Assembly (NCBI RefSeq): GCF_964194155.1
Contig: NC_135888.1
Span: 129,766,001-129,830,000 of the forward strand
DNA length: 64,000 bases
Origin: Cetorhinus maximus
Taxonomy: Eukaryota
Reading direction: 5' to 3'
Below, piece after piece: positions 16,245-64,000 of this stretch (positions are counted from its first letter, which is position 1; every line of letters starts with the position of its first letter). The notes beneath the pieces are model-generated. The model ran no database searches, was not told the DNA's origin, and saw only the letters and a list, made by a program, of their open reading frames with translations. Both the position numbers and the translations under genes were made by a program.

Positions 16245-16820
16245 AGGGGAACTGGTGGATGTGCTATACTTGGATTTCCAGAAGGCATTTGACAAGGTGC
16301 CACACAAAAGGTTACTACGTAAAATAAGAGCTCAAGGTGTAGGGGTTAATATGTTAGCACGGATAGATTATCGGTTAGCTAACAGGAAGCACAGTAGGCA
16401 TAAATGGGTCATTTTCAGGTTGGCAGGATGTGACAAGTTTAGCGCCACAGGCTTCCGTGCTGGGACTTCAACTATTTACAAATCATATCAATGACTTGGT
16501 TGAAGAGACTGAATACGTGGTTGCTAAATTGGCCTATGATACAAAGATAGGTAGGAAAGTAAATTGGAAGGGTTAAGTGGCCAAAAAAATTGGCAGATGG
16601 AGGATAATGTGGGAAAATGTGAACTTTTCGACTTTGGCAGGGAGAATAGTAAAGCAGCACATTATTTAAATGGAAAGAGATTGCAGAACTCTGAAGTACG
16701 GAGGGATCTGGGTGTCCTGGCACATGAACCAGGAAAAGTTAGTATGCAGGTACAACAAGTGATTAGGAAGGCAAATGGAATGTTGTTTATTGCAAGAGGA
16801 ATGGAATATAAAATAGGGAT

Positions 16821-17028
16821 AAAAACAAAAAAACTGCGGATACTGGAAATCCAAAACAAAAACAGAATTACCTGGAAAAACTCAGCAGGTCTGGCAGCAT
16901 CGGCGGAGAAGAATAAAGTTGACGTTTCGAGTCAAGGGTCATGAGGACTCGAAACGTCAACTTTATTCTTCTCCGCCGATGCTGCCAGACCTGCTGAGTT
17001 TTTCCAGGTAATTCCGTTTTTGTTTTGG
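16821..17028. mobile_element. Penelope-derived hairpin insertion
   Basis: 83-bp inverted arms (16851-16933 and 16946-17028, one mismatch), 12-nt loop, perfect 14-bp TSD TATAAAATAGGGAT. Confidence 0.85.
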
Positions 17029-18079
17029 TATAAAATAGGGATGTTTTGCTACAGTTGTTGGTGAGACTTCAAATGGAGTACTATGCACAGTTTTGGTCTC
17101 CTTCTTTAAGAAAGGATATACATGCATTAGTAGCAGTTCAGAGATGGTTCATTTGAGTGATTCCTGGGATGTGGGCAGTGGTGGGGGGGTGGGTTTGTGG
17201 GTTATCTTACGAGGAAAGGTTGGACAGGCTGGGCCTGTATCTATTGGAGTTTGGAAGATTGAGAGATGATCTTATTGAAACATGTAAAATCCTGAAGTGA
17301 CTTGACGGCGTGGACACTGAGAGATTGCTTCCCCTTGTGGGAGAGACTAGAGCCAGGGGGAAACAGTTTAAAAATAAGGGGTCTCCCATTTAAGATGGAG
17401 GTGAGGAGAAATTTTTTTCTTTCAGAGGGTCATGAGTCTTTGGAACTGTCTTCCCCAGAGATTGGTGGAGGCAGAGTCATTTGATAATTTTAAGGCAAAG
17501 GTAGATAGATTGTTGACTAACAAGGGGGTCAAATGTTATGGGGGTAGGTGTGAAAGTGGAGTTAAGGCCACAATCAGATCAGCCATGATTTTATTGAATG
17601 AGGAGCTGAATGGCCTAATCCTGCTCCTAATTCGTATGTTTACGTGTAAAAGCTGGTCTCAATAGTAAGTTTTTTGATGAACTAAAGGAGAGGGATGACG
17701 AGGGTAGTGTGATGGTTGTTGTGTATATGGAGTTTCAAAAGGCATTTAACAAAGAATCACATAAATCGTTATGAATTGCAAAGAATTGTTTAAAAAAATG
17801 AAGCCCTTGGGGTTATAGGGACACTGGCAGCATGGGTACAAAACTGGCTATGAGACAGAAAGCAGGGAGTAGTGGGGAATGGTTGTTTTTCAGACTGAAT
17901 TCACACACTTCTTTCCTGCTATGACCTTGACTAGTGAATATATTTTTTTTTAATTCCTTCATGGGGGTGTGTGCATTGTTCGCTAGGCCAGCATTTATTG
18001 CCCATCCCTAATTGCCCTTAAGGAGATAGTGGTGAGCTGCCTTCTTGAACTGCTGAAAGTCCATGTTCTTGGTGTTACC

Positions 18080-18990
18080 ATTCTTGATTCGTCAGCTCTT
18101 CCATTCAGCCAGTTGATTCTGGCTTTTGTACAGGCTGTCGTCATATCAGCACACAATCTGAGGTAATCTCTGCTTTATACACCACTGGCCTTTCTGTCGC
18201 ACATCTCTATGAGGCCTAAACATTCAACTGTCATCCATGGCTGTTTTGCATTTTGTTTCGGGTATAGCTCACCTAATGCAGTCAATCGCATTGTTGACAG
18301 TAGTGGCCACCCCTTTTTGCCCTGCATCTGTTCTTTTACTTTTCTCTCAAGTTCCGTTGGGCTCTCATGATGAATTCCAGTTTTCCCTTGGGTGTTCTTT
18401 AGCTTATGACATCAACTTTTTCCTGTGATCTTTGCCCGTACTAGTTGATGGTCAGAACCAGGATCAGCACAAGGCAAGGCTCTGGAATCTAACCCTTCTT
18501 TTCTATCTGTCCTCTGACTATGATTTAATCAATTTGGTCCTTGTGACACTTACCAGGGGAAGTCCATGTATCGTGCTGACTATCTCTATGACAGAAGCAG
18601 TATTAAGCAACTTGTTGCCTTCTAACCAATCAAGGGGCATTAGCCCCCTCTTGCTTGGTTGCACCAAGTCCATATTTGCCACAAGAACGATGTTGTTATT
18701 TTCTCCCAACTTTGCATTAAAGCCTCCCATAACTACCAGATGCTCTCTCCAAGAGCTTCTTGAATCTTTTGATACACAGCCAAAATTGTGACATCATTGC
18801 TGTCAATTGTTGAGAGATAAAACTGATGGGCTTAGCATCCACTCTCAACATCCTGTCACTGACTAACTTCACTGCCGCGACAGCTTTATCAACTCTCGGT
18901 GAGATCAAGAAACCCAACTCCATGGAGATGATTTACTCCTCCAATATAGTGGAAGGTCCGGTACTCTCTCTTCCACTGGCTGTAACTGCC
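18080..18990 (-). mobile_element. RTE-like LINE endonuclease remnant
   Basis: GFLISPRVDKAVAAVKLVSDRML and MGGFNAKLG (APE GDFNAK-like motif), heavily decayed. Confidence 0.6.
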
Positions 18991-20419
18991 TGTCCATCTG
19001 ATGTCAGAAAAACACATGTACGTTTAAAAGGGGGTGTTTTGATCAATTTAGACTTGATTTAATTTAGCTGCACGCAGCCTAATTACTGGATCCCAAATCA
19101 ACCCTTTAAACTGATTTAGCTCGACAGAGATACAACCATCAGGACAAAGACTCAGGCACTGAATTAGCCTGCATTACCAAAGTTTATTGAATATAAGCAA
19201 AATTAAACAATACACTTATCAATTAATTGTAGACATATCAATTAACTAATAAAAAGAAAACAAAAATATACTTATCAACCAAACACGACATCAGTCCTCG
19301 CGCAGACAGGAAACTCCCTTTGACCCCGAGGATCTGTCAATTAGCTCAACCCTTCATGCCTCTGCCCCTGGGGGAAACTGCACTATCCGGGGTCCATGCT
19401 GACAGGAATTCTGCCTCCGTCCCTGGGTCCTGTGCTTCACTATTGATTCCTGCACTGACAGGAAACTCCCTCTGTAACTGGTTTTCAGGTGAGCTTGGTG
19501 AACATAAACACAATTGTTCCCGAGGCCCTCTATTAAACCCAACTCTGGATCACCCAACTTTAACCCGTAGTTGTTGCTAATGGCCAATTGATCAGTAATG
19601 GTGTAAGGGTTAATTTTGTTGGCTCTGGCCATTTGCGCACATGGCCTTAAATGTAAAACAATGGATTATTTCAAAATGTATCCTTTATCTTAATGCTTCA
19701 TCAATGTCCCATTCATTAGACCAGCACTAAACCAGTCAAGGTCGGTATGTTCTGATAGGTACCAATACTGGGTCGTTCAGGGTTCCTTTCTCACAGCTTC
19801 TGCTGCAGCATTTTTAACTTTCGGACTTTAATCCTAACGTGGGAATATTAGTAGGAAATACAGAAATAAACATAATCTGATTCTTATTAATTATTTGATT
19901 ATTAATTACTTACCTTTCAATTATTGGGTAATTGAGGTACTTTCTTCGAATACAATCATCTGTTGCTGGTTGGTGACTATTTCATATTAAGTTAGCTTGT
20001 AGTGAAAGGTTAGCATGCTCTTGTGTCTGTCAGAGTCCTTACGTTCCAGGTTGCCAAGCTCAGTTCTCTGTGATATTCATAAACATGTGGTTAAACAGAG
20101 ACACCCACTCTAACCTCGTCATACATTGCCTTTCCCGCAATGTCAGATGTGCATCCCCGCCCCCCACCCCAGCCACATCTGGGTGCCGCACAATCCTGGG
20201 GGTCTCAGTTGCTGGCTTCCTTGACATTAATCGATGTGATCTTCTCATGCAAGATGGTTGTAGGCTAATATCCTGGGGCTCGCCAGTCTGGTCCAGAAAG
20301 TGTCTTTAAGGTGACATGGCCGCCCCCCCTGGGTGACCATTGGCAAGCGTGACAGCTCGTCCGCCCTTTGACAGGTCATGTTCTTTGTCCTACAGGGGCT
20401 CTAGGGGCTGGGTTTACAG

Positions 20420-21217
20420 GGCATAATTTGAAAGTTTGCAGATGATACGAAACTCAGAAATATAATAAATGAAGAGGGTAGCGACAGACTTCAGGCGGAC
20501 ATAGACAGACTGGTGAAATGGCAGACATGAGAAGAAAATTTAATGCAGGGAAGTATGAAGTGATGCATTTTGAAAGAATGAGGAGAGACAATATAAACTA
20601 AATGGTACAATTTTAAAGGGGGTGCAGGAACAGAGAGGCCTGGAGATTTGAGAAAGCTGTTAAAATGGAATTCTACAGAGTACGAAAGCAAGGACATTAC
20701 GCTAAGTCTTTACAAAACACTGGTTAGATCTCATATTGTGTTTAATTCTGGGCACCATGCTTTAGGAAGAATATTAAGGCCTTAGAGAGGCAGCAGAAGA
20801 GGTTTACCAGGGTGTTACCAGGGATGAGGAACTTCAGTAACGTGGAGAGACTAGAGAAGCAGAGAAGGTTAAGAGGGAGATTTGATAGGGGTGTTCAAAA
20901 TCTTGAACGCTTTTAATGGAGGTCACAGAGTTAAGGTAATTGACGAAAGAGCCTGAAGTGATGTCAGAAACCTGTTTTTTTTTTTTACACAGTGAGTAGT
21001 TACAATCTGGAATATGCTGCCTGAAAGGGTAGTGGAAGCAAATTGAATAGTAACTGTCAAAAGGGACTTGGATAAATAGTCGAAGTGAAAAAAAAATCTA
21101 CAATGCTATGGGGAAGAACCCGGGAGTGGAACTAATTGGATAGCTCTTTCAAGGGGCTGCCACAGGCCTGATGGGCTGAATGGCCTCCTTTGATGCTGAT
21201 TCAGTCTATGATTCTAT
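20420..21217 (+). mobile_element. CR1 LINE 3' fragment
   Basis: aagtttgcagatgatacgaaact (KFADDTK) through the ctatgattctat tail. Confidence 0.8.
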
Positions 21218-24200
21218 CAAAGGGCTCACTGCAGAAGATGAGGTGATATTCTGATTGTTGTCTTCGATACCGAGGGGCAAATGATGACAAACCTTCTAAG
21301 ATTGACTTGCTCCAATTTTAGCTCCAGAAAGTACCCAATTAATCAGCTGTGGAAACTGGTTGTTATCTTCCCAGAAGAAAAAAAAGCATTTCAGATCAGT
21401 ACTCTTATTTCCCAGTTTCTATTATATTATCGCTCTGGGTTCCAGCTCGGGCCTTCATTTCTATTGTCACTTTTTTGCACCCGAACAGTGATAACATTAA
21501 TAACTAACGTCAATTCCCCTGCCTTTTCATGCCTCCTTAATTTAACTTCTTGTCCTGAGTGAAGGCATTAACTGTAGGCCCAGGCTGCCTGGCCTAGTGG
21601 TTCAGGTGGGTGTTAAAGAACCTAAGGCACTTGTTTGAAGAGCAAGATCCTGGACTAACATTCTTTCCCCTACAAGCAGCACCAGAAAAATCAGATTAAT
21701 TGGACATTCACTGGGAAAGATACAAAAGGCCACAGTTAGAAGGACGCAGAAATCTTGGAGGTTGTAAGGCTGTAGGAGGTTACAGAGATAGGGAGGGGGC
21801 AAGGCCATGGAGCATTGTAAAAATAGAGATGAGAATTTTACACTTGAGATGTTGGTGGACCAGAACCAATATCATGTTATCTTTGGAGTATTTTGGCGAA
21901 TCTTTGCTTGTTTGCAGCTCAGTGCAGGATAAAAAGGTGCCACTAAAACAAATACAAGCTCATTCACAGATAACATCAACATAAATGCAAATGTTTCTCA
22001 GTCGTTGATGTGTCTGGCCCTCCTCTGCTGGAGGGATGGGGTTGTCAGACACTTCTGTGTAATAGCAGCGAGTGGCATGGAACTCAGGTCTTTGGAGTCT
22101 CACACAGAGTGCTAGTAAGAAAGAAAAATTAAATCTTAGTCTGTGAGCATTGCTGGCAAGGTCAGTTTTATGTTTTGGGTTATCGGGTTCGCTGTATCCT
22201 TCGAACGCGAGCTGCACCCTTGATATCCACACACTGGTCAGTGCTTGAAACAACATAGGCAGAGAGAGGCCGAATTACTTAACAAACACTGGTGGTTTAT
22301 TGTAACTAAGAACAGGACACTAACACGAAGCGTGCTTCTTCAATCACCTCCAGCTCTAGACTTACAGTTACCCAAGTAGCCCGCTGTATAGCGATTGGTT
22401 GACACAGCCACGTGGTCGATTAACTACATTCACTTAAAGGTACATAGCAGTCCACTTTACCACAGCCAGCATTTGTTGCCCATCCCTAGTTGCCCTTGAG
22501 AAGGCGGTGGTGAGCTGCCTTCTTGAACCGCTGCAGTCCATGTGGTGTGGGTACACCCACGGCGCTGTTAAGAAGGGAGTTCCAGAATTTTAGCCCAGTG
22601 ACAGTGAAGGAACGGAGATATATTTCCAAGACAGGATGGTGGGTGACTTGGAGGGGAACTTGTAGGTGGTGATGTTTTCATGCACCTGCTGCCCTTGTTC
22701 CCCTTGGGTGGTAGAGGTAGCAGTTTTGGAAGGTGCTGTTGAAGGAGCCTTGGTGAACTGCCGAAGTGCATCTTGTAGATGGTAAACACTGTGCACTAGT
22801 GGTGGTGCGAGTGGATTAAATCCAAATGTTAAAAAAGGTCCAGTGGCAAGTTCCTCCACCAGTCCCCACAATATAACCTCCGCCAAGGCTGCTTCTGTCC
22901 TTGTGAATACAGAACAAGGTCACAGGCTTGACAATTCACCCCATCCGATAGTCCCATCACAGAATCTAGTTACTTCTTAACTAATTCTGGGTTTTTTGCC
23001 TTGAAATTCATTGGAATCCATTCTGCGTCTGGCTCACCCTCAGTGTGGAAACTCTAGAAGTTGCTATGTCATCGGTTTCACCCCATTGCCAAGTCTCCGT
23101 TTTATTTGAAGTGCTGTCCCTGACTTGTTCAAAAAAAATCCTTCTCAGAATCTATTCAAAGCAGCATTTTTGTCCTTTCTCCTTCTCTTCCTTCACTGGG
23201 ATGCACACAGCCTGGATTTCCACCTCTCTCAGGGCCCCCCTCACTGGTTCTCGGTCTTTCTCTCTCTACTCCAAGGAATAATTTTCTATTACGATTGGAT
23301 AATACTCTATTGAATAAATATCCTGCCCACTTCTCAGTCCGTTGATCTCAAAGGGATGCGAATTGCCTACGTTTTTACCAGTGCACGTTTCGTTTTAGTT
23401 GGGGGTCATTTACTCTCCACACAAGCAATTAGTTCTGATTGTATTTATCCATCTTGTTCCCCTATCCCTTCAACTCCTTTGCCCCCCAACCAACCTAATC
23501 CTGAATGTTGACATAGTTTCTGGTCTCAAACCACTAACTCTGCATCTCACAACCAATGTTCCTTCTAAGCGGCACAGTTGCAGAGCAACCCAGAATTCGC
23601 CACACAGGCTGTATATAAGTCAGCCCCTTTAATTTACAGCAATACTGTGGCAGTGTGATAAAAATTTAAAGGGCCCATGCAGAACTGCACGACTCATGGT
23701 AAAGAAGTATCTCCTGCCTTACTTACTCGCTTAGCTCCTCCAGTCCCATGCAGGACAACGGGCAGCAAGACTCTGCCAGTGGCCCTGGTCCATCGCAATC
23801 TCTTTCGCTCCAGCCCAGCTGGTGTCCCACTCTTGAGGTCCTCCTCAAATGTACTTCACCAGGTCTTCTTTGGCTGGCCCTGTCTTCTTCTGCCTGCTCT
23901 ACTGCCACTCTGGCAAGGCGTATGTCCAGGAGATGCAGAACATGTCCTGACAGCATCCGTCATCTCTCTGTCACAATGTCCCACAGGCACCTCTGACCGG
24001 TCCTCAGTAGCACTTCCTCGTTTGTTCTCTGTTCCAAATCTCTTAACTGTGTTGCTGTTTGCTGGAGATCACTATGAGAAAATTGGCTTCCGGTTTCCTA
24101 TGTTACAACAGTGACTCCATTTTAGAAGTATTTCATTGCCTCTAAAGTGTTTTGGGATGTCCCAGAAGCCATGAAAGGTGCTATGGAAATGTAAGTTCTA

Positions 24201-24504
24201 TTTTAAGGATATAATTAAAATGTCCAACAGGTGGCAGGATTTAGTCAACAGTCTCGAACCTTTCACAAATCACATCAATGCTTCTTTGAGTCATGTGACA
24301 GCATCTACCGTAAAGCCTGGTGTACAAGTTACCATTGAATCTGGTATGCAGCGTGTGTTTCTGTCTATGGCAAGTGAGAGCATAAGTTGCATGTTTAGGC
24401 TTGGGTATGGTACCCTAATAGTTTTGGTATCGGAGTAGCAATCTAGAGATTGAAGGCAGGAATTTTAACTCTCTCCTTCTGGTAGAAATCAGGCAAATTT
24501 CTAA

Positions 24505-24796
24505 AATTTCTAAAAACAAAAATAAAAAATGCTGGAAATACTCCAGCAAGTACTGGCAACATGTGCGGAGAGAGAAACAGACTTATCGTTTCAGCATCCG
24601 AAGTATTTTGCTTTTGCTTCATCAGAACTGTTCCGGTCTGTTCTTTCTTCAGACCACCAGGAGCTCTGATAAAGGTCGTAGATCTGAAACATTAATTCTG
24701 TTTCTCTCTGCATAGATGCTGCCAGACCTGCTAAATATTTCTAGCACTTTCTGTTTTTATTTCAGATTGCTAGCATCGGCAGCATTTTACTTTTGT
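24505..24796. mobile_element. Older Penelope-derived hairpin insertion
   Basis: Inverted pLTR-like arms. Degenerate CTGATAA...GAAAC at ~24666. Flanks GGCAAATTTCTAA / GGTAAAATTCCAA. Confidence 0.65.
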
Positions 24797-26886
24797 GGTA
24801 AAATTCCAAGCGGTGGACGTGAAACAACTTTCATTTATATGGAACCTTTAAGGTAAAATATTAAAAAGTGCTTCACAGGTGCACAACAAAATTTGACACT
24901 GAGACATTAGGTCAGGTGACCAAAATCTTGGTTGAAGAGGTAGGTTTTGAGGATCATCTTAAAGGAGGAAAGCGAGACAGAGGGGTTTAGGGAGGGAATT
25001 CCAGAGCTAAGGGTCCAGGCAGCCGAAGGCACGGCCACTGATGGTGGAGAGGTTAAATCAAGGATGCTCAGGAGGCCAGAATTGGAGGAGCACAGGGAGC
25101 CTGATGGATGGGGGGAGCAGGAGGAAGTTAGACAGATAAGGAAGGATGAGGCCATGGAGTGATTTTAAAACAAGGATGGGAATTTTTAAAAATGTTATAT
25201 TCCCAATGCCACGCTAGGTGGCACACTTTGCCACACATGCGCAGTTTTAGTGTTTTGCAGTGATACGACCTTGCGCGTGACAGTGCAGCCAGTGACCAGG
25301 TACTCATATCACCATGGCAGTGTTTATAGGTGGCGCCATTTTAAAATTGGACTACGACCACTTAAACGCTGTTGTTTCTTGGGCACCTGAGGTACCCATT
25401 GGACTCGGGCAGAAGCCTCATGAATAAATGTAAATCAGGCTCCCAAGTTGGACTTGGAACCTTGAAGAGATTGAAACCGTCTATTGAGCAGATGCTGGTG
25501 TAGGGGCTGCACAATAAAACTGGTGAAACAGCCTTTGGAAGGGGTTAGGGAGGAAAATGAGAGGGGGAACGAGGAGGAAGGAGAGAGAATGGGAGAAAGA
25601 TGGAATGGGAAAAATGAGAGATGGTGAGAAGGGAGGAAAGACGAGGGGGATAAAAGGAAATAAAGAGACAGCGACGACAGGAAGTGAACATAAAAAATGA
25701 GCAGGTGTAGGGCACTCAGCCCCTCTACCATTCAACAAGATCATGGCTGATCGTATACCTCAACCTCACTTCTAGCAGAAGTAACTGGATAGATTACAAG
25801 AGTCCAGGGTGATTTCTCCTCACATCCCACTCTTCTCAATCAAGTCCAGGGGACTCTGGAACAATGTGCATTTATCAAAGCGCCACTGGTGACCTCAGGG
25901 TCACCCCAAGTGTTATGATCCCAGCTGATGTTACTACTGGACCTATCAAATCCCAACTGGCTTGATAGATCCTAACATGTATATTTTTCGAAACTTTGGA
26001 GGTAAAGTTACTGAACAAATTCCCAGGAGTCTGCTGATGAACTTTTAACAAAAAGGAAAATCATTTATTAAACTAGAAAAATGAACTATATTACACCAGA
26101 CAATGGTTGGAAAGATCTCAATACAAACACAAGAAAATGATTCAAATAGTCACTATTCCTTCACCCTTCACAGACATATATAAATTCGGAAAGAGAAAAC
26201 AATTTACCAGGGTAAGTATGCAGTGCACGTGAACCAACGGGTGAACAATGGACGGACACACTACACTCCAAAGTAAGTGACAGGTGCCACCAAAGCAGAT
26301 TCTGTGGATTTCTCAACAACCCACCCAGACGCTTGTCACACTGTGAGCCAACCAGTCTCACTGAAACGTTGTCTTTCTCACGAGTTTCCAACCTCCACGT
26401 TCAAAGAACTTGCTTTGGAATTCTCTCCCAAATGTCAGTCCCACTTGGACAGTTTCAACAAGGGTCCACCTGCAGGGTTTCAATCTCACCTTCCAAGATT
26501 CCTTTCCCCTGGATCACCAAGTTACATGCAAGCTTCACCTTCCAAGTGCAATTTCAGATCTTCAGCTGCGCCAAGCAGAACGCCACTGCTCCAAAAGGCA
26601 CCTTGGCCCTTGTGGCCCGCAGCATGGAGTCACCAACCTTTGGCTGCCCTCTCAGATTGTCAGGGTTTCTCTCGAACCCACTTTGCTTCAGGTCTGCTCC
26701 CCACAGCTCCCCCTCTTCAATTTGGTGCCTATTGCTCTGCTCCTTTCTCTCAACTTTACTTAACAGGAATTGTTTCATACCTCTGTCCTTGTCCCTTAAC
26801 TGGGATCTTCTTCTGGGACCTCTTTCTGTCCCACTCCCTTGTTTGGGACCTTGGTCTTGGTTTGAACATAGAAACATCAAAACATA

Positions 26887-38894: not shown

Positions 38895-40954
38895 ACACAA
38901 GCGGCAGCCGTCATCGTGCTTACATCCGCGCAAAGGGCTAGGCGGGATTTTGGCATTTCATGGGCGGGGCTGAGGTTTTGAGTGATAGGGAGCCAAAACC
39001 AAGGAAAAAGAGAGTGGGAGAGGGGCGGGACCAGACCGTTGAGTGGCAGGGGATAAGGGGGCGCGGCCTAGTCACTGCGGAACATGCTTGGGGGGAAAAA
39101 GACAGACTTGAATTTCTATAGCACCTCTTCTTTAAATGAGAGAATTTAATGAACTCAACCTGACATCATATAATTTGTGGTCCTTAACTCAAAATACAAA
39201 GTGCATTAGACCTTTTTATTTTTATTCTGTAAATTATGAAAACTTGCATTTTATATTGTAATTTTTTGTATGTTGAGATGTTCATAATTATGCGATTTTT
39301 AATTATTTTATACTTTATTTTTAGTTTAATGACAGTCTATAACTATGTTAAGAATTATGATTACTTGTTTTATTTCTATTATCAGAATATGGCACATGCC
39401 ACCATGATGATTTTTCAATGAAGCAATTATCTTTCTACCTATCTGTAACCACAGGACATCTCAGTCAGGAAGCTGCTTTTTGAAGTGCAGTCTGTCATAT
39501 TTTGTTTTATTCTGCTCTTATGAAGCACCTTGGGACATTTCAATCTTTCTTTTTTTTCCTTTTTTGAGAAAAATATGTTGTTGTTGTACTCAGCCTTATA
39601 TAGAAGGAACAACAACAGCTTGTTATTATATAGCACCTTCAACTTCGCAAAACTTTCCAAGACACTTCAGGGGAACATCAGCCAGATAAAATTTGACATT
39701 GGGCCATGAGTGAGGAGATACTCGGGGAGGCAGAGAGGTTGAGCGAGGGAATTTCAAGAACTTCGAGCCCAGGCAGCCAAAGGCATAGCCACCAATAGAT
39801 GGTGGAATGTGTAAAATGGAGGATGCCCAGAATTGGAGGAGTGCAGAGATCTTGTAGAATTTGAAGGGCTGGAGGATGTTCAGGGATGCGTGGGGTCTGT
39901 CACACAGTTGATATGCAATAATCCTCATTATTTAAAAGTGAACATAAGAGCATAAGAAATAGGAGCAGGAGCAGGCCATTCAGCCTCTCGAGACTGCTCC
40001 ACCATTCGATAAGATCATGGCTGATCTGATTGTGGCTTTCACTCCACTTTTCTGCCTGCCCCCTGTAACCCTTCATTCCATTGTTGATTAAATATTCCTA
40101 ACTCAGCCTTGAATATATTCAGTGGCTCAGCCTCCACTGCTCTCTGGGTAAGATAATCCCAAAGATTAACGACCCTCTAGAGAAGAAATTCCTCCTCATC
40201 TCTATCTTAAATAAGAGACCACATTTTGAAACTGTGCCCCATAGTTCTAGACCCCCAACCTCAGCATCCATCTTGTCAAGCCCTCTCAGAATTTTATGTT
40301 ATTCAACCCCAGGTGACTGTCTTTCAGCAAAGGAGAGTGAAAATTGAAAATAAAAACAGGAGACTCCTTCTACCTGATTGATTTTTTATTATCTATTATT
40401 ATGTTGTAAAAGTTTAACAAGCGACTCAGAGCCTCCTTCCTGTTCGGTTGCTTTTCCTGATCAGAGTGCTCACTGTGGTTTTATTACCAATAGTGAAATC
40501 ACCAAACCCATATCAAATTCTTCACTGGTTGCCAATAAGGTGCATACAGCATTTTATTTGTTGTGCACAGCAGCAGAATAGAACTGAATGGAGACAGGAT
40601 GTACCAAAACTCTTTACCAGCCAATGAAGGGCTTCTGAAATGTAGTCACCGTTACAATGTAAGTACTGCAGCAGCCAATTTACACACAGCAAGCCCCTAC
40701 AAACAGCAATGTGATTCTGACCAGATAATGTATTTTAGTGATGTCAGTTGAGGGATAAATATTGGCAAGGACACTGGAGAGAATCCCCTGTTCTTCTTCA
40801 AAATAGTGCCATGGGATCTTTTATGCCCACCTGAGAAGGCAGATAGGGCCTTAGGGTAACATCTTATACAGAAGGAGGTTCCACTGACAATGCAGCCTTC
40901 CCTCAGTCCTGCCCCTCCACTAATACAGCATTCTCAGTACTATCCCTCCTAGAG

Positions 40955-42819: not shown

Positions 42820-43113
42820 CTAGAGTTCAGCGCTCCCTCAGTACTACTCTTCCAACAGTGCAGCACTCCCTCAGGACTACTCCTCCAACAGTGCATCACT
42901 TCCTCAGTACTGCCCCTCTGACAGTGCTCCCTAAATACTGCCTCCCTAACAGTGTAGCACTCCCTCAGTTCTGCACCTCCAACAGTGCAGCACTCCCTTA
43001 CTACTGCCCCTCCGACTGTTCAACGCTCCCTCAGTACTGTCCCCCAACAATGCAGCACTCGCTGCTAATATCGTGGACTAGCAATCTAGAGGCCCAGGCT
43101 ACTGCTCTGTGGA

Positions 43114-43943
43114 TAAAGACAAAAAGCTAAAAGCTACTGCAGATGCTGGAAATCCAAAACAAAAACAGAATTACCTGGAAAAACTCAGCAGGTCTGGCAG
43201 CATCGGTGGAGAAGAAATCAGTTAACGTTTCGAGTCTTCATGACCCTTCGGCAGAACTGAGTATAGTTAGGAGAAAGATGAAATATAAGCTGGTCTAAGG
43301 TGGGGGGGGCGGGGGGAGAGAGAAGTTGAGGGTGGGGTGATTGTGGAGATAAGCAAGCAGTGATAGGAGCAGATAATCAAAAGATGTCACAGACAATCAA
43401 AAGATGTCACAGACAAAAGGATCAAAGAGGTGTTGAAGGTGGTGATATTGTCTAAGAAAAGTGCTAATTAAGAATGGAAGACAGGATACTCAAGGTACAG
43501 CTCTAGTGGGGGTGGGGTGGAAAGACTAACAAAGTTTTAGTTTTAGATTTCACCTATTTCCATTATTTTTAAATCTAAAACTAAAACTTTGTTAGTCTTT
43601 CCACCCCACCCCCACTAGAGCTGTACCTTGAGTATCCTGTCTTCCATTCTTAATTAGCACTTTTCTTAGACAATATCATCACCTTCAACACCTCTTTGAT
43701 CCTTTTGTCTGTGACATCTTTTGATTATCTGCTCCTATCACTGCTTGCTTATCTCCACAATCACCACACCCTCAACTTCTCTCTCTCCCCCCGCCCCCCC
43801 ACCTTAGACCAGCTTATATTTCACCTTTCTCCTAACTATACTCAGTTCTGCCGAAGGGTCATGAAGACTCGAAACGTTAACTGATTTCTTCTCCACCGAT
43901 GCTGCCAAACCTGCTGAGTTTTTCCAGGTAATTCTGTTTTTGT
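43114..43943. mobile_element. Penelope-derived long fold-back insertion with two hammerhead-like cores
   Basis: Arms 43158-43550 and 43571-43944 are near-identical reverse complements with a 20-nt spacer. TSD TACTGCTCTGTGGA / TACTGTTCTGGGGA. Splits a SINE. Confidence 0.85.
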
Positions 43944-44384
43944 TACTGTTCTGGGGACATGGTCTCAAATCTCATGACAGCTGGTGGAAATGTCAATGTA
44001 ATTAATAAATTGGGAATTAAAAGCTAATCTCAGTCATGGCAACCAAGGGAGCTATTATTGTTAAAAGCCCACCTGGTTCACTAATGCCGTTTAGGGAAGG
44101 AACCCACAGCAATGTGGCTGGCTCTTAACTGCCCCTCTGAAATAGCTGAGCAAGCCGCACAGTTCAAAGGCAATTAGGGGTGGGCAACAAATGCTGGTCT
44201 TGCCAACAACACCTACATCACATGAAAGAATCAAGTGCTTGAAATCAGGAGGCAGAACCCATCTGTGTGTAAGTACTTGGATTATCTCTATACTCCCCTG
44301 TCCAGCACAAGTCAGGTAACTTCATTGGTTCTAATCCCCTGAATCAGCTCAGAGACGGAGGGGGTAAAAGCGCTTTGCGTGACC

Positions 44385-47800: not shown

Positions 47801-48309
47801 AAAACAGGTCACGGGATCACCGATAAAAGAGCGAATGGAATAATGGGAGAGCTTTATGCTCTGTTGGCTTCTCAATCTATTGTCTGTATGTGAGCAAGAA
47901 TGTTTGAAAGCTCTCAAATTATCCCAAATAAGAAATGATCTCACCATACCATCAAACCAATGATTTGTGAAGTGAATTTCACACATATCCACCCTTTCAT
48001 GCAGTGAGCCAGGCACTGTTAGAATATCCATAGTACAGGACGCAAAGGGCACACTATATTCTGTGCATAAAATTAAGGGGAAAAAAACACCTTTTGACCA
48101 AAGAGAGCATGTGAGATTTTCTTTAATTTTACACGTGGTTATAAAGACACAGTGTGGGATCAGCCCAGCAGTAGCTGATGAGCACAAGTTTCTGCTGATA
48201 AGACTCCAGCACATGGTAAGATCAATTGAGATCAAAGAACTTGCATTTCAATAGTGCCTTTCACAACCTCAGGAAGTCCCAAAGCGCTTGACAATGAAGT
48301 TTCTTAGAC

Positions 48310-48535
48310 AACAGCAAAATGCTGTGGCTAGAAATCTAAAATGAATACAGAAAATGTGAGAAGTACTTGGCAGGACTGTGGGGAGTAAAGCAGAGTTAAT
48401 ATTTCAGGCGGTTGACCCTTCCTCAGAATTGGCAAAAGTTAAAAGAGGTGTAAAAGCTTTTAAGCCACAGAGAGATGTGAGGGTGGGAAATAGAACAAAA
48501 AGGGAAGGTCTGTGATAGGGTAGGAGGCAGGAGAC
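48310..48535 (-). mobile_element. Penelope-like pLTR remnant
   Basis: Similar to the left arm of the 43.1 kb element (gcagagttaatatttcagg...gacccttcctcagaa). Confidence 0.5.
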
Positions 48536-50030
48536 AGGAAGCGCCTTTCAGGTGTACTTATTGTTGTAACGTAGGAAATGCACAGCAAGATCACACAACA
48601 GCAACGTGAAAGTGACCATCCTCAAGATGCACCGGAGCAACTCGCCAAGACTCCTTCAGCAGCATCTTCCAGACCCACGACCGCTACCACCTATAAGGAC
48701 AAGGGCAGCAAATGGATGGGGACACCGCCACCTGCAAGTTCTCCTTCAAGCCACTCACCATCCTGATTTGGAAATATATCACCATTCCTTCACTGGCGTT
48801 GGGTCAAACCCCTGGAACTCCCTCCCTAACGGCACTGTGGTTGTACCTACACCACATGGACTGCAGTGGTTTAAGAAGACAGCTCAGCACCACCTTCTCA
48901 AGGGCAATTCAGGATGGGCAATAAGTGCTGGCCCGGCCAGCGATGCCCAGATCCCCTGAAAGAATATTAAAACAATTCTGTTTTGGTGAGCTCCATTGAG
49001 GGGTAAATATATCCCAGGGCACAGGAGAGAATGTTCTTCAAAATAGAAGCCATGGGATCTTCTGTGTCAGGACCAGAGCCTGACAGGGCCTTGGTTTAAC
49101 GTTTTATGCAAAAGATGGAACATCCAACAGTGCAGCACTCCCTCAGTACTGCTTCTCTGATAGCACAGCTTTCACTTAGTGCTGCACTCTAAAAGTGCTG
49201 CACTCCCCCAGTATTGCCCCTCCGACAATGCAGCAATCTCTCAGTAATGCCCTTCTGACAGTGCAGCTCACTTTCAGTACTGACCGTCCATTATTGCAGC
49301 GTTCCCTCAGCACTGCCCCTCTGATAGTGCAGCTCCGTTTCAGTACTGGCCCTCTGATACTGCAGCACTGCTGTGAGACTGCCCTTCCAACTATGCAGTG
49401 CTGCCTCAGGATTGCTCCTCCAACGATGCAACACGATCCAATCAGATCAGCCATGATCTTATTGAATGGCAGAGCAGCCTGAAAGGGCCGAGTGGCCTTC
49501 TCCTGCTCCTAATTTGTATGTTCGACTGTAATTGTAACTCTATCCCATTATTTTTCTGTCTCATAACATTTCTCTCATCTTCCATTATTTCTCTTCATCA
49601 GTCTTATGCTATCACTTGATCTGATCCCCCTCTCTCTATCTCTCTCTGGATTCTGTGTTACTATTAGCTGCCAATTTCAAATCTACAGTCAGTCTCTAGC
49701 TAGCAGTTTTACTGCCAGGTTTTGAATCCAACCCTTGAAAGGCAAGAAGGAGCTCTGTGAATGGTTGTAACAGGGTTATACTACCATACGCGCCTCCCTG
49801 TCACTTCACATCCACGAATGTGGCAGTATAACTGCACTCAAATCTGCTTTGTGTTCATACTACAGTAGTATGAACACAGGATCAGGGTCTGACCAGGCTG
49901 CTGAGAATGTGCTGAGAGTTCTGGGGTAAGGGGTCCATTTGGGCAATGTAAGCAGGCTGCCATCACCATGAAGCAGGCCCCACAGTGAATGGTCAGACTC
50001 ATTAACTCTCCAGACAGGGTCAGTGCTGTG

Positions 50031-50233
50031 ACAAAAACAGAAAACGCTGGAAAACTCCGCAGCCCTGGCAGCACCTGTGGAGAGAGAAATAGAGTTAACG
50101 TCTGAGTCCGTATGACCCTTCTTCAAGAGCTTGAAACGTTCGCTCTGTTTCTCTCTCCACAGATGCCGCCAGACCTGCTGTGTTTTTCCGGCTGGTTCAG
50201 CTTTCCATCATCCACAGTGTTTGATTTTATCTT
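50031..50233. mobile_element. Penelope-derived hairpin insertion
   Basis: Inverted pLTR arms. 14-bp TSD GGGTCAGTGCTGTG / GGGTCAGCGATGTG. Confidence 0.75.
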
Positions 50234-50387
50234 GGGTCAGCGATGTGCTTGGTGCCAGTGGTTCATGAAGTTATGTTCTGTCTGTTTCCGTCTCCTCCCT
50301 CATTCTGGGGATAATGAAGGAGAAAATCAAGAGAAGAGAATGAATGAGGGATGAGAAAACAGAAGTAACGGAAACAGGAGGGGAGGC

Positions 50388-53352: not shown

Positions 53353-53428
53353 AGACAGTCAGTCAGGGAGAGACAGAGACTGACAAACAGACCCAGAAAG
53401 AGTGCTGACCCCCCCGGGGAGACTCATC

Positions 53429-53449: not shown

Positions 53450-53532
53450 GTGAGCCGGGACCGGACCCCGGGACAGGACGGGACGGGACAGGGGAAGCGG
53501 ACCCGGAATAATCGCCTCTTTTTCTCCCCCAG

Positions 53533-53630
53533 GGTCGAGTGAGCCAGGAGGTGAAGATGAGCTTCTCGGAGCAGTTGTGTAAAGTGCAGAACAAACAGCA
53601 GCAGGAGGCTGAACTGCTGGAGGACATCAG
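53533..53630 (+). CDS. FCHSD1: FCHSD1 coding exon 2 (start of F-BAR domain)
   Basis: Acceptor ttttctcccccag, 98 nt, GRVSQEVKMSFSEQLCKVQNKQQQEAELLEDI(R), donor GTAACC. QEVK..F.EQL and LLEDIR match FCHSD1 better than FCHSD2 (QELK...LLEDMR). Confidence 0.88.
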
Positions 53631-54797: not shown

Positions 54798-55151
54798 GGG
54801 TTGCCAACTGTGATTAAATGTATTCTCGGAGGTTTCATCACATAGCTCTAGCCATTAGTCGGCCAACACATCCATCCTCGTGATGCACTGCCTTCCACCA
54901 ACTGGAAAGCAAAAAGACTCATTACCCAATTGGATGATGCTTGACTGACAGCCAAACAGCCTCCCCCACTTTCCAATTTTCAATATTTTTTATATCTGGT
55001 AAGGAGAAATTTTCAAAGAAAATTTTTTTTAAAAAAACAATCTTTTTAAAGTCCCTGTGATTTTTCTCCAGGGTTGCACACAGTAGTCTTCCAGAGATTG
55101 ATCTTCAATTCCTGGAGACTCCAGGCCAATCCTGGAGAGTTGGCAGCCCTA
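54798..55151. mobile_element. Non-autonomous DNA transposon-like repeat
   Basis: Termini GGGTTGCCAACT...AGTTGGCAGCCC. A partial second copy lies at 45875-46110. Confidence 0.55.
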
Positions 55152-57630: not shown

Positions 57631-59302
57631 GAGGCCATTCAACCTGTCATATTTGTGTTGGCTCTTTGAAAGAGAATCCAATAAATTTGTCCTTTTTAAG
57701 TAGAGATCTAATTCTCTCTGTTTAAGTCTATTTTCTGAAAGTTATTTATTTTTTCCCCGCCTTCCCCCAACGCCTTGGGCATCCCTAAAAATCTTGTGGT
57801 TGGAAATAATAATGGGGTCAGTAACAAGTTAGTCAATAACCAGAGCAGGAAAGTTCCACTTGATAATCCCAAATTGGGCAAAAGGTGTCAAAATTTGAAA
57901 TGATTGTCTTGTTCTGTTTGTGAGTCAGAGCTCTCTGTTCGTGTGGTTATTGGAGAGGCCACCAATGACACCTCGCCCCAAAAGTTTAGTTGTGAGAACT
58001 GTGGCAATGAAGCTTTGGTTGTGATTGGCTGAGATTCATTAGAAGCTGGAGGTGACGTTGATCCCTTGAGCAGAGCTGTTATAAAGTGGAGGCAGGGGAA
58101 TGGAAACGAAACCTGGGGGAGGATCATTTTCTGAATGAAGATCTGGACAGTTAAGTGCAACCTGGAGTGTTTAAAAAGGAAGAAATTATCAATTGCAAAA
58201 GACTATTTTTAACACCTTTTTATGTTTCAATATGATCACCTCTCATTCTTGTAAACTCCAACGAGCATGAACCCAACCTGCTCAACCTTTCTTCATAAGA
58301 GAAAGGACTTCATGGGCTGCTTTGAGACAGCTTGAAGCACAATATAAATTCAAGCTTTTTCTGTTTAAGTCACCCTTTTCCCCTCATTAGGGGATACAAA
58401 CATTGCAGGTCAGCCTTTAACTCTGTCAGAACACAGTCTCGGAGTGACTCTCAGGTGGACTTTCGATCTGCGTAAGCTATCTCTGTTCCATGCTAGTGAG
58501 AGGACCGCATCAAACCTCTGCTGGTGTTTCCTATTAGTGACCTCGTGCTGTGTTCTCATCGCTAAGGTATGTGTTAGGAAGTCCCTGCCCCCATACCCGG
58601 ATAAAAATCGATCAGGGAAAACATTAGACAGGCAGCAGCCTGCTGGCAGAGTGAAATGTTGGAGCAGATCCATAGAGGAAATAACATGCCTGATGTAAAG
58701 TTTGAACATTAAGAAATGAAGGAGTCTGAATGCAACTCCCCCGCTGAACACATTGAGTCTGTGGTTCTCTGATGTCTCCGCACTAAATTTTAGCAACGGT
58801 TGATTTATTTTCAATTTTTTACCAAAAAAGTCAAGAGATATAAATAAAACAAGAGTTTGTGAGGCAAGTTTATGGGGAGCTGGTGGTTTGGTGGTAATGT
58901 CACTGGAGTATTAATCCAGAGGCTCGTTGATAATGTCCTGGGGACATGGGTTCAAATCCCATCAGGGCGGCTGGAATTGAAGGCTAGCCTCAGCCACAGA
59001 AGCCATGAAACCCATCTGGCTCACTAATGTCCTTTAGGGAAGGAAATCTCCCATCCTTTCCTGTCTGGCCAATAAGTGAGTCCAGATCCACAGTAATGTG
59101 ATTGATTCTTAACTGCCGTCAAGGGCAATTAGGGAGGGGCAACAAATGCTGACCTTTCCAGCAACACGCACATCCCCCGCCCCCATATTTTACGCTCAGC
59201 ATTTCTTTAAAAACAACTGGGTTTTCCTCTGTTTCTTTGGAATAAGCGTCTAACTGAGCTTATAGTAATGGCAGAGGGACTGGAGTTAGACCTTGGCAGT
59301 TG

Positions 59303-59333
<31 letters not shown>

Positions 59334-60906
59334 CTTATAGGCATTAACCGGACATTTTTATTTATTCCTCCTCAATACAAATCTTCACCTTCGATTTAAA
59401 TAAGTTTTCTCGAAGGGTGAGATTCTTGAAAGGATATCCATGCATTGAAAGCAGGTTATTACTAGTGCACAAATACTTTATGAAATATTTAAACCTATTT
59501 CAACAAGCATGTTTATTCGTTCATGGGATGTGGCCCTCACTGGCTGGGACATCATTTGTTGCTCATCCTTAATTGCCCTTGAGAAGGTGGTGGTGAGGTG
59601 CCTTCTTCAGCTGCTGTAGTCCATGTGGTGTTGGTACACCCACAGTGCTGTTAGGGAGGGAGTTCCAGGATTTTGACCCAGCGAGAGTGAAGGAATGGTG
59701 ATATATTTCCAAGTCAGGATGGTGTGTGGCTTGGGGGGGTGGGATTTGCAGCTGGTGTTGTTCCCATGTACCTGCTGCCCCTGTCCTTCCAGGTGGTAGA
59801 GGTCATGGGTTTGGAAGGAGTTGCTGCAGTGCATCTTGTAGATGGTACACATTGTTGACCCTGTGCGTCAGTGGTGGAGGGAGTGAATGTTTGTGGATGG
59901 GATGCCGATCAAGCAGCTGCTTTGTCCTGGATGGTGTCCAGCTTATTGAGTGTTGCAAGTGGAGAGTATTCTATCACAATCTTTCAAAGTAAAATATGAA
60001 TCAAAATGTAGAGTGTCAGGGTATGATTACCCCCCCGATGTTTTCTGAGTGTCAACCATATGACCAATGGAGAAATGAAATAACCATGTGGACATGGGTT
60101 ACGTCCTTGCCAAAGTAAAAAACAGAAGATGGCTTTGGCATTTTCACGACCACATGAAAGCAAAATAAGATGCAAAGTATTTCCGGAGTTGGAACCTGAT
60201 GTTTGGAAACAGATGAAGGTTTGGAAACTTTATTAGGTTTTATGGATAAGATCTAACAAAAAGATGATTTATTAACTGCTCACGAAGCATGGTTGGATTT
60301 TGACAAATTTAGAAAGTTGGAAGAAAATTCTGCAGAACATTACATAATGGAATTCAGTAGCCTTTAGCAAGATTGTTAAAATTCTGTCTGGAAATTCCCC
60401 AATCAGTGCTGGCGTTCAAGTTACTAGACTGCGCCAGCATCTCGAATATGGACAGGCTTCTAGTTCTAACAGGAGTTAAGTGTGCAGAAAGACACACACT
60501 GCTAGAACAGATGTCAGAAGCTCTTAAAAAAAATTCCTCGGAAAACATTCCTTTCCGGCAGCATTCATGGCACAAGTGAGCCATTTGGCAGTAAGACAGA
60601 AAATGAAGGATACAATGTTAACGGGATGGCGAGATCGTTTAGAAACAGGACACAGGCATCAGTACAAAAGGAGATTTGTAACTAGAAACAATGGGGAAAG
60701 AAACACCTTGGACAATTATGACGGGAGAAAAGAATTAGGGATTTACGACAAAAAAAATGAACCCCAGAAATGCCCAGGGTGTGGTCAATCGGTGTTTTAG
60801 ATGCAATTCAAAATATCATATGCAATGGACTGTCCTAAACGATATAATAAGGTGCTTGAAATTAAACATGAGACAGAAGACTCAGAAGAAGAAGAAGATA
60901 GAGATA

Positions 60907-61050
60907 AGTATTTGGGATTTGCCATGGCATACAAGGCTATGGGCCTAGTGCTGGAAAATGGGATTAGAATAGTTAGGTTCTTGTTTGACTGGCGCAGACT
61001 CGATGGGCCGAAGGGCCTTTTTCTGTGCTGTAGACCTCTATGGCTCTATG
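60907..61050 (+). mobile_element. Short CR1 3'-end insertion in the Copia gag-protease linker
   Basis: Matches the 3' end of the CR1 at 40955-42819. TSD AGAGATA at 60900-60906 and 61051-61057. Confidence 0.75.
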
Positions 61051-63040
61051 AGAGATATTGACCAAAGAGAGGGCATTGTATTAGTTGCAAGATGTTTCAA
61101 CCCAGTGCTGAATGTCTTGGTGGCAGAGTCCTTCAACTGTGCGGTGCTAGATAGCGGATGCATGTCTACAGTCTGTGGAATAGACTGGCTAAAATGCTAC
61201 CTGGACTCCTTAAATGACAAGGACCGGAATAAGGTTAAAGAATTTGAGAGTTCCACCAGTTTTAGATTTGGAGATGATAATACCCTAAAATATTTAACAA
61301 GTGCAGTGATTCTCTGTAAGATAGCTGGAGTCAATCATTTCATCAGCACGGATGTAGGAGATTAAAGAAGTGTTATTAGCATTGGGGGATAGGAATTTGG
61401 AAGACAAAAAGCGAATTTGTGTTAAAATTGCATCGCCAGTTTGCCCATTCCTTCTTCGCAAAGATTAAAAATTTTGCAAAGGGGCGCGGGAATAAGGGAT
61501 GGAGAGTACGCAAAGCTTATAGAGGAGATAAGGGATAGATGTGATACATGTAAGAAATACAGAAGGATACCGCCATGGCTGACAGTGAGTCTACCTTTAG
61601 CAAGGGATTTCAGTGAAGTCGTGGCGACGGATTTAAAGGTGTAGGGTAAAGAAAAGAACATTTTTATTTTACATTTCGCAGATCTGGCAACAAGGTTTAG
61701 CCAGTTGACAATCATATACAGTAAACAAAATAATTGTGGATCAGATAATGGAGAAGTGGATAGGGACTGGATTGGGACCACCAGCAAAATTCCTCACTGA
61801 TAATGGGGTGGGGCGGGGGGGGGAGTTTGCTAAAGATGACGCCTGGGATATGTGTGAAAACATGCATACAATAGTTATGAATACCACAGCTGAAAGCCCC
61901 TTTAGCAATGGTGTGTGTGAAAGAAATCACGCGGTTATAGGTGAGATGCTTGATAAAATATTGGTGGGTAGACCAAGCTGTAAATTAACATCAGTTCTAG
62001 CATGGTCTGTCCATGCCAAGAATTCACTGCAGATGATTGGAGGCTACAGTCTATACCTGTTGCTTTTTGGTAGAAACCCAAAAATTCCTTCAGTCCTGTG
62101 TGATCACCCTCTAGCTTGGGAGGGAACGACTATTAGCTCTATCTTTCCTGAGCATTTAAACGCACTACACATGAGTAGAAGAGCGTTCCTTAAAGCCAAA
62201 GCTTCAGAAGGAATTCGGCGAGCTCTTAAGACACCATGCACGACCATTGGAAACTATTTTCAATCAGGGAGACATGGTATACTAAAAGAGAGAAGGGCTT
62301 AACGAGTGGAAAGGCCCGGGAAAGATTATAGGTAAAGATGGTATTACAGTCATTTTACAACATGGGAACCAGACCATTCGGGTATACTCATCAAAGTTAG
62401 TCGGCACAGACTACAAATTTGCAGGTTCAGAAAGGATAGGAAGGGACAAGGAACCGTGTGCTTCTCATGCCCATGTGTTGCATGATTGTGAGGACCCAGG
62501 TAGCTGAAGTTGACAGGGTATCTGAAGATGGAGAGAGTGATTTGGACGAAGAAAATGAAGCGATTTGTCCCAGAGGACAACTGCAGAAAGCTGGCACTAA
62601 AGTTAAGCACTTGCCAGAAGGGGCCAGTCAATGGCGGAATGCGACAATTGTAGGTAGAGCAGGGAAGACCACTGGAAAATTTAAAAACTGGTTAAATGTA
62701 CGAGATATAAGGACAGGAGGTTAGGCCTATGATTGGGAACATGAAATACAAAAATGGAAGGCACGGAAAGGCAGCATCAGTTCAGACATTGGGTCTGGGA
62801 GTAAACATGCCTCTAGGAAGAGATCACGAACTGTTGAAAGAACATCTATAAATGGAGAAGGAGATCAAACAGTAACAGTGATAGAAGGCAGGGTAGAGGA
62901 CATTGCTTAGCAAGGTCAAGGAATATGGCACAGGCTGGTAACGCTACAGGAGCAAAAGCCCATGTGATTGAGAAGTCTTAGTAGCTTCAAACAAATTAGA
63001 TGATAAATCAATAAAGGATGCAAAGCAGCAAGAACTACAT

Positions 63041-63232
63041 AAAAGCAAAATACTGCGGATGCTGGAAATCTAAAGCTGGAGGTGTAAAGCATCTGTGGAG
63101 AGGGAAACAGAGTTAACGTTTCAAGTCTGTATGACCCTTCTTCATACAGACTGGAAACGTTAACTCTTGTTTCTCTCTCCACAGATGCTGCTAGACCTGC
63201 TGAGCTTTTCCAGAACTTTCTGTTTTTGTGTG
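63041..63232. mobile_element. Penelope-derived hairpin inserted in the Copia pol
   Basis: Inverted arms. 14-bp TSD AGCAAGAACTACAT / AGCAAGAGCTACAT. Confidence 0.8.
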
Positions 63233-64000
63233 AGCAAGAGCTACATAGTTGGAAAGAATTTGGGGTATACACAGAGGTGCCAGATAGAGGACTCCGTCTC
63301 ATAGATGGATATGCACAGAAAAGGTGCTTCCTAATAGGACTTATAAAGTTAAAGCCAAGCTAGCGGCACGGGGGTTTGAAGAAAAATTAGGTGACCAGGA
63401 TATAAGGTAAATTCATCTACATCAGGGAAAGTTATGCTGAAGCTGTTTTTAGCTCTATTAGCTACAAATGCTTGGGAATGCAAGTTCATTGATATTAAAG
63501 CTGCTTTTTTGCAGGGACACCAGCTTCAAAGGGAAGTTTTTCTCCCTCCACCAAAAGAGGTGCTAAATGCAGAAGGGACTCTTTGGAGGCTAAATAAATG
63601 CATGTACGGTTTAAATGATGCCTCAGAGTTTCGTATTTCTCAGTGAGGTCAGTTTTATTAAAGTTGGGCTGTCTTCAGTTGGAAGCAGACCTTCCAATGT
63701 TTAATTGGCACCATGGAGGGGAAACTCGCAGGCATCTTTATGATGCATGTAGATGAATTTTTGTGGGGTGGTAGTAGCGAATTTGAAACAGTTGTCGTTA
63801 ATGGGCTCAGAATGGAGTTTAAAATTGGAAGTCAGGCTTCTGGTGTGTACATTGTACGCTGGATTGGAAATCAGGCAAAGCTTTTACATCAGCAATCCTA
63901 TTTAGAGAATGTCAATATCATTGCAATTAGTTGTGGTGGGGCCTTCCAGAAAGATACAGCAGCTTCTGAAATGGAAAAAGAGGAACTCAGAAGTCTAATT

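Follow-up and report, generated by a model that had tools for sequence, protein, structure and literature searches.

Hairpin insertions of Penelope-like elements in Cetorhinus maximus, and how two priming events may account for them

How does a retroelement come to leave behind hairpins, each made of two inverted copies of its own end and most of them set between the two copies of a short duplicated target? The question is raised by a window of 64,000 nucleotides from Cetorhinus maximus (contig NC_135888.1; G000:C10:129,766,001-129,830,000), within a vertebrate genome of 3.99 Gb. An initial annotation had placed five such inverted structures in the window, and all five are present where it put them. 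The element is a Penelope-like element (PLE), and its ends carry a hammerhead motif. I propose that each hairpin is a separate insertion in which two 5'-truncated PLE ends were laid down head to head, likely by twin priming, and I consider this the probable explanation. In twin priming as known from L1, both target ends prime complementary DNA (cDNA), the products are joined at microhomology, and a target-site duplication (TSD) is left.

The arms, their tails and their junctions

The terminal module of autonomous, endonuclease-bearing (EN+) PLEs makes up the arms, an identification supported by the loci that two genome queries retrieved. A 143-nt piece of the arm at 43114 brought back 30 loci, and these continue directly into an open reading frame (ORF) ending IEFNNFRS*. 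The Penelope-like ORF end that the initial annotation had noticed in the window's single copy at 28010 (IEFNNFRP*, 28023-28049) matches this ending. A query from behind the tail matched 41 places. Of the 14 retrieved, 12 have a leader, a body of ~2.7 kb and a 3' module; in 10 of the 12, a piece of the module also precedes the leader. Full-length parents with reverse transcriptase (RT) and GIY-YIG domains, which that annotation had proposed to look for, are thus found in this genome. The terminal module stands before the ORF and again at the 3' end, giving the layout pseudo-long terminal repeat (pLTR), ORF of ~900+ aa (RT, GIY-YIG), pLTR.

Within the module, numbered so that +1 is the first base of the hammerhead, a TATA-like box (~-29) is followed by +1, the hammerhead (+1 to +39), site 1 (+99 to +107), the tail, site 2 (+134 to +143), and then the leader and ATG. 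An 898-aa frame (L303) matches RVT_1 at 406-567 (E 5e-5) and GIY-YIG at 820-855 (E 4e-4), both below the Pfam curated cut-offs, and also carries the motifs DKG, CX4CxxC and LVYCxxCxxCxxxYIG. Two cysteines stand between GIY and YIG (LVYCIRCSQCGLLYIG at 820) with histidines downstream, the CCHH arrangement, and between RT and the C-terminal endonuclease (EN) lies a CX2-5CxxC linker, CPRRRCNTC at 783. Two traits of EN+ PLEs, a tail of 30-40 bp at one end and an inverted 5'-truncated copy, are both present. A PDB sequence search with the 898-aa frame gave no match. I take the parent to be Neptune rather than Nematis, since its host is a vertebrate. The CX2-5CxxC linker marks Neptune, and Nematis as well (PMC8557442).

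A short internally deleted derivative (L302, G000:C10:23890486-23895485) has the +1 module, the leader, 317 nt of body and the 3' module, and is a candidate for a true non-autonomous form. The insertion at another locus (L017, G000:C16:19769405-19772547, minus strand) has beside it a frame of 341 aa, presumably resembling a G-protein-coupled receptor.

The two arms of a hairpin differ in a way that the initial annotation missed: one has the tail and the other does not. This rule was counted in three sets of insertions collected blind to the tail. The unbiased set comes from 120 evenly spaced 10-kb stretches (1.2 Mb, L111-L230) of 11 large contigs, scanned with a hidden Markov model (HMM). In it are 68 single arms and, within 4 kb, 32 head-to-head pairs (of the long pairs, a few may be neighbours by chance), so that 68 of 100 insertions are single-armed. 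As many as 23 of the 32 pairs span <=350 bp, compared with 1 pair in the reverse geometry. By tail, 27 pairs are tail/tail-less, 3 tail/partial, 2 tail-less/tail-less and 0 tail/tail (P 4e-4). The rule is also kept by 17 of the 18 two-armed copies in a set of 29 insertions, and, judged by eye, by all 15 in a set of 39 insertions from a second young subfamily, where long copies whose far end lay beyond the fetched flank were left unclassed. Not one tail/tail pair occurs among the 65 pairs of all three sets.

The window's hairpins had been described as two inverted copies of the same terminus. Inverted they are, but the arms are unequal in 5/5, one being tailed and the other 30-44 nt shorter. 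Nor are they one family, as was claimed, for they fall in several subfamilies. A scan of the window with the terminus HMM added three decayed copies (the last three entries), and the window's PLE features are these (strand is given where one applies):

16807..16820: left copy of TSD, 14 bp, perfect; the last 3 nt match the element's tail end too
16821..16933, minus strand: tailed arm, ~+136 back to +23, young CUGUUGA-type subfamily
16934..17028, plus strand: tail-less arm, ~+11 to +105; blunt junction within hammerhead helix II
17029..17042: right copy of TSD
24505..24796: older two-armed insertion, tail-less arm left, tailed arm right; centre in several pieces, including an internal fragment of tail
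24492-24504 / 24797-24809: putative TSD of the 24505 insertion, 13 bp, 3 mismatches, weak
28013..28572, plus strand: single-armed, 5'-truncated, tail-less copy; ORF end (28023-28049), then 3' untranslated region (UTR); TATAAA 28449-28454; damaged hammerhead ~28477-28513; TSD 27997-28012 / 28573-28588
43100..43113: left copy of TSD, 14 bp, 2 mismatches to 43944-43957
43114..43550, minus strand: tailed arm, 44-nt tail, young CUGCCGA subfamily; truncated within the 3' UTR
43220-43258, minus strand: hammerhead motif of the preceding arm
43551..43943, plus strand: tail-less arm, reaching 20 nt further at the centre; hammerhead motif (A6C core) 43844-43882, its first base being the predicted +1 (43844); TATA-like box 43814-43819
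43944..43957: right copy of TSD
50031..50233: older two-armed insertion, with the tail-less arm on the left at 50031-50126 and the tailed arm, now decayed, on the right at 50126-50233
50017-50030 / 50234-50247: TSD of the 50031 insertion, 2 mismatches
63042..63232: older two-armed insertion (the 63041 hairpin), tailed arm left, tail-less arm right; 3-nt microhomology (TCA) joint
63027-63041 / 63233-63247: TSD of the 63042 insertion, 1 mismatch
38047..38147, plus strand: single-armed stub, its start near +1, with the canonical core CUGAUGA and without a significant TSD
48307..48455, minus strand: decayed tailed single arm; no significant TSD
35127..35196, plus strand: decayed tailed fragment; no significant TSD

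The duplications claimed around the five hairpins were set against a null of 1,457 random flank pairs. Four are significant: 14 bp with 0 mismatches at 16807/17029 (0/1457), 15 bp with 1 mismatch at 63027/63233 (0.07%), and 14 bp with 2 mismatches each at 43100/43944 and 50017/50234 (0.4% each). The fifth, 13 bp with 3 mismatches at 24492/24797, is marginal and weak (2.5%). The single copy at 28013-28572 has a duplication of 13-16 bp (0.07%). In paralogous host repeats the flanks of the 16821 and 28010 insertions are contiguous, with the duplicated stretch present once (30 and 19 contiguous pairs); for 24505, 43114, 50031 and 63041 no contiguous flank pair was found there, and the comparison is uninformative for these four. 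The decay of the duplications had also been taken to suggest activity over a long period. As a clock of age it is rejected, because arm identity and TSD mismatches disagree: the arms at 43114 are 96-99% identical with 2 TSD mismatches, and those at 63041 ~82% identical with 1.

When the 32 random pairs are taken with the 5 of the window, a TSD is detected in 21 of 37, compared with 0.4% of 1,332 cross-locus pairs. A TSD score >=9 is reached in 14/18 loci (13 bp in 5, 14 in 6, 15 in 2, 17 in 1) and in 27/30 loci (10-16 bp), and the lengths, 10-17 bp overall, cluster about a mode of 14. Target and element overlap by 0-6 nt at both outer ends, with means of 1.3 nt at the tail end and 1.6 nt at the tail-less end in 22 of 30 loci (the 8 with an exact TSD <12 bp left out), where chance would give ~0.4 nt by estimate rather than computation.

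Single-armed copies offer small samples of duplications. Three tailed ones (L246, L247, L261) have shorter duplications of 8-9 bp, and tailed single arms hint at TSDs of 8-11 bp, while most of the tail-less ones (L234-L236, L252, L260, L265) have 13-15 bp. Two seemingly single copies (L097:3381-3403 and L110:5793-5819) have at their 5' end an inverted piece of tail just ~22-27 nt long, and TSDs of 13-14 bp; L234 may bear an 8-nt stub.

Then there are the junctions. Unique breakpoints, it had been reasoned in the initial annotation, would mean independent inverted integrations, and by eye the junctions differ in 23/23 unbiased short hairpins. In a further 35 loci, 30 of them picked as best matches to the 16821 hairpin, there are 29 distinct end pairs. 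Arms form a continuum from ~20 nt (L097, L110) to >2 kb with RT/EN coding sequence (L096), and the arm lengths of long two-armed copies are uncorrelated overall (Spearman 0.02, n=17). One two-armed insertion with a 13-bp TSD (L253, G000:C2:58467803-58470868) has ~160 nt of unrelated filler between its arms. In 11 hairpins informative for the donor allele, both arms share it in 7, where 1.2 would be expected by chance, and the arms carry different subfamily alleles in 4, one of them (L049) at two linked diagnostic sites.

The hammerhead and the 5' ends

If junctions vary, where do the arms stop? The 5' ends of 41 arms of one young subfamily were collected with a query placed wholly downstream of the hammerhead. 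Ten start at -1 to +2 (two of the ten being arms of one insertion), 9 at +5 to +29, and 2 at -8 and -25; the remaining 20 extend at least 134 nt upstream. The pile-up at -1 to +2 thus takes in 10 of the 21 arms ending between -30 and +34 (p ~1e-8). Single-armed copies show the same pile-up, which argues that it arises at insertion. The +1 base is the A of an initiator-like word, YYANWYY, the initiator consensus, with the TATA-like box ~29 nt upstream, and two elements (L248, L302) start at +1 and run through the tail into the leader. The simplest reading, and a likely one, is that the RNA starts at +1. A TATA plus initiator-like arrangement has also been described in a rotifer pLTR (PMC3846280).

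The hammerhead's own cleavage site (+35/36) is another matter: none of 46 hairpin arms has its end there. With the query relaxed by 5 nt, only 2/41 places were gained, one starting at +40 and the other uninspected. An apparent group of old single copies with starts close to the cleavage site was discarded, its members being decayed, without TSDs and variable in their starts. Contigs of four presumed-RNA runs from other organisms cover the repeat; they cannot show starts or expression.

As a fold the motif is well kept, with 28 intact pattern matches in which helices I and II pair and show compensatory changes, catalytic activity being a prediction. The core A6 is replaced by C or U in 20 of the 28, A6 having been lost in young subfamilies. 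At least five core variants (CUGAAGA, CUGAUGA, CUGUUGA, CUGCUGA, CUGCCGA) mark successive subfamilies in L111-L230, and helix II covaries. An Rfam scan of the window found no hammerhead at the gathering threshold, only a tRNA. In another hammerhead, A6C cut Mg2+-dependent cleavage >10,000-fold and spared activity in Mn2+ (PMC7151607). The fold-back centre of the short window hairpins had been placed inside the hammerhead motif, and this is so for 16821, 50031 and 63041; the centre of 24505 consists of several pieces.

How the hairpins may be made

I propose the following course of events. The element's protein would cut both strands of the target ~13-15 nt apart, giving two 3' ends. One of these would prime cDNA at site 2, yielding the tailed arm, and the other at site 1, yielding the tail-less arm, with each priming end pairing over 0-6 nt with the RNA. 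The two cDNAs would stop independently and be brought together by blunt, microhomology or filler end-joining, giving TSD-tail-arm-junction-arm-TSD. If the RNA starts at the hammerhead's first base, then priming on the 5'-leader module would run off after 100-140 nt, and joining would trim the ends slightly. Run-off at the 5' end of the RNA likely accounts both for the abundance of short hairpins and for their centring on the hammerhead, whose cleavage is likely uninvolved in insertion. Two-ended inverted priming from one RNA had been suggested at the outset. The two-ended priming and the Penelope origin stand, but 'from one RNA' is not established, because the arms differ in allele in 4 of the 11 informative hairpins.

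A wider proposal can be made tentatively, one that I think slightly more apt to be wrong than right. PLE integration may be an obligately asymmetric two-primer reaction, with a dimer, a ~14-nt stagger and one RT start site per strand. The templates would be either module of the transcript or two RNAs, and hammerhead-centred hairpins would be run-offs from a capped 5' leader. The hammerhead would now be structural, its catalysis given up in young subfamilies (A6C/A6U) and its helices kept.

Several points weigh against twin priming as I have drawn it. Its steps for this element are read from geometry, counts and the structure of the parent, and the parent's probable place among C-terminal EN+ PLEs of Neptune/Nematis type comes from motifs rather than from a tree. 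RT stalling at the 5' edge of a folded hammerhead would resemble the pile-up at +1, and the predicted promoter and start take all their evidence from a motif and that pile-up of ends. Three pairs are tail-less/tail-less (L010, L114, L142), none with a good TSD. Several young single-armed copies have no TSD, and with 68/100 insertions single-armed this means that twin priming is not the sole outcome. Of 17 long two-armed copies, 4 have arm ends within 40 nt of one another, where permutation gives a mean of 0.8 (p 0.002); this is more than independent stops would yield and argues for some coupling or later trimming. And one junction, that of the 63041 hairpin, does recur, in 24 of 30 best matches and 43 exact matches genome-wide. 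It is absent from the 23 unbiased hairpins, where three loose matches proved false; it is a 3-nt microhomology join, it lies on at least 3 subfamily backgrounds, and the tail may be on either side of it (10 versus 14 of the 24 loci by eye; a loose tail-pattern script gave 11 short-side, 9 long-side, 3 both and 1 neither, and miscalled 4/24). For these reasons I read it as a recurrent join.

An alternative view is that self-priming produces one arm as a copy of the other, through fold-back either of the cDNA or, as proposed for rotifer PLEs, of an antisense template, and that the finished hairpin is then integrated. Palindromes at inverted PLE junctions were read in this way by Arkhipova et al. 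(PMC3846280), and the 63041 junction, with a 3-nt overlap compatible with fold-back, the donor allele common to both arms in 7/11 loci, and the tiny fold-back pieces at some 5' ends (L231, L246) would all suit it. A tail absent from the template cannot, however, turn up on its copy, so self-priming fails wherever the tail sits on the would-be copy. Of the 24 loci that share the 63041 junction, 14 (by eye) have the tail on the arm with the shorter reach at the centre, as do 3 of the 4 near-perfect long palindromes. Add to this the four hairpins with differing alleles, L049 at two linked sites, and the foreign filler in L253, and self-priming appears unlikely. Still less likely is that long inverted insertions were shortened afterwards by deletion of the palindrome's centre during replication or repair. 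The excess of near-equal arms and the microhomology at some junctions are what it would produce, but the same +1 end is seen in single-armed copies, where no palindrome exists, and the tail rule and the TSD are left unexplained. Such trimming may nonetheless act on top of twin priming.

The initial annotation had entertained a different idea, that the short hairpins are a non-autonomous, hammerhead-processed retroelement, akin to a retrozyme, that moves as a unit. Their numbers are impressive (23 in 1.2 Mb, or ~77,000 if extrapolated), one junction recurs, and an internally deleted derivative with both modules exists in L302. A unit that moves as such ought to keep its junction, and yet 23/23 unbiased junctions differ, the recurrent one is found in 0/23 and sits on at least 3 backgrounds with the tail on either side, and arms run on continuously to >2 kb. 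Its ends ought also to be set by hammerhead cleavage, whereas ends avoid the cleavage site; the junction breaks the hammerhead in three window hairpins, and A6 is C or U in 20/28 motifs. I regard the idea as very unlikely and largely refuted. That the hairpins are miniature inverted-repeat transposable elements (MITEs) of a DNA transposon is barely credible. Short inverted-repeat elements with TSDs would look the part, but these arms are continuous with an RT and GIY-YIG ORF, their ends are unequal, and their lengths are continuous to >2 kb per arm. The arms do not match terminal inverted repeats of a DNA transposon, they are homologous to pLTRs, and TSD lengths are not random.

The rest of the window, and other systems

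Apart from PLE copies, the window holds a single-exon MED7 coding sequence (32914-33648, minus strand; Pfam Med7, E 5e-49) and an exon with the start of a PH domain (11080-11223, minus strand), presumably of a Tec-family kinase such as ITK. A tRNA-Ser(TGA) gene lies at 38812-38895 (minus strand), and ARAGORN alone makes a weaker tRNA-Thr call at 4787-4878 (plus strand). The cluster of inverted arms of 45-118 nt at 7847-9228 (I3, I4, I7, I9, I14) is made of other repeats, not the Penelope terminus. Broken reading frames at 60973-62302 (plus strand) have no Pfam match; I take them to be protease and integrase pieces of an LTR retroelement.

How far does the proposed twin priming resemble what is known? 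With L1, the internal site taken by the second primer varies, and the result is an inversion with little overlap; here two fixed start sites 30-44 nt apart would give near-complete inverted duplicates. Closer is the rotifer element Pen2a_Av of Adineta vaga (PMC3846280), along with the PLE scheme in PMC8557442. These have the same inverted head-to-head 5'-truncated copy with a TSD, the same 30-40-bp tail, often at one end, TATA and initiator-like motifs, and a hammerhead in the pLTR. Unlike in rotifer PLEs, both arms here are usually stubs and the copy number is very high, and TSDs are 13-15 bp compared with 8-10 bp in those rotifer cases. For the one-tail rule and the +1 pile-up, the present analysis gives counts in place of description. 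Self-priming is favoured in PMC3846280; the present data do not favour it.

In vitro, the Poseidon protein PAc of Anolis cuts and extends both strands, is predicted to be a dimer, and can dispense with the hammerhead (PMC11167929). As here, the tail is bounded by two RT start sites, which lie beyond the hammerhead and within the transcript's 5' part. PAc belongs to a different clade from the present element with its CX2-5CxxC linker, and its ORF starts inside the hammerhead rather than after the tail. Start-site use did not differ between strands in that study; in the genomic copies described here, one site is paired with the other. Young subfamilies here, with A6C/A6U cores (20/28), also depart from the minimal type I hammerheads of metazoan PLEs (PMC4209133). 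Retrozymes (PMC4918200, PMC7761336) are likewise short, hammerhead-bearing, non-coding and flanked by TSDs, but they are direct-repeat units that move as such, while the hairpins are inverted and have individual junctions.

The architecture is not new. Inverted 5'-truncated copies, one-sided tails, TSDs and minimal hammerheads, including opposite-strand pairs, have been published (PMC8557442, PMC3846280, PMC4209133, PMC2377424). The quantitative rules are the added value: in the part of the literature that was searched, no paper was seen to set out the rule of one tail per pair, the 14-bp stagger or the run-off at +1. The origin of inverted pLTRs, one-sided tails and TSDs in PLEs is posed as an open question in PMC8557442 and PMC11167929. 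The copies give sharp predictions for the in vitro system that already exists: the length of the stagger, a single start site for each strand, run-off at the 5' end of the RNA, and the dispensability of cleavage. They also bear on how such genomes are annotated, for tens of thousands of these hairpins could be mistaken for MITEs or structured RNAs.

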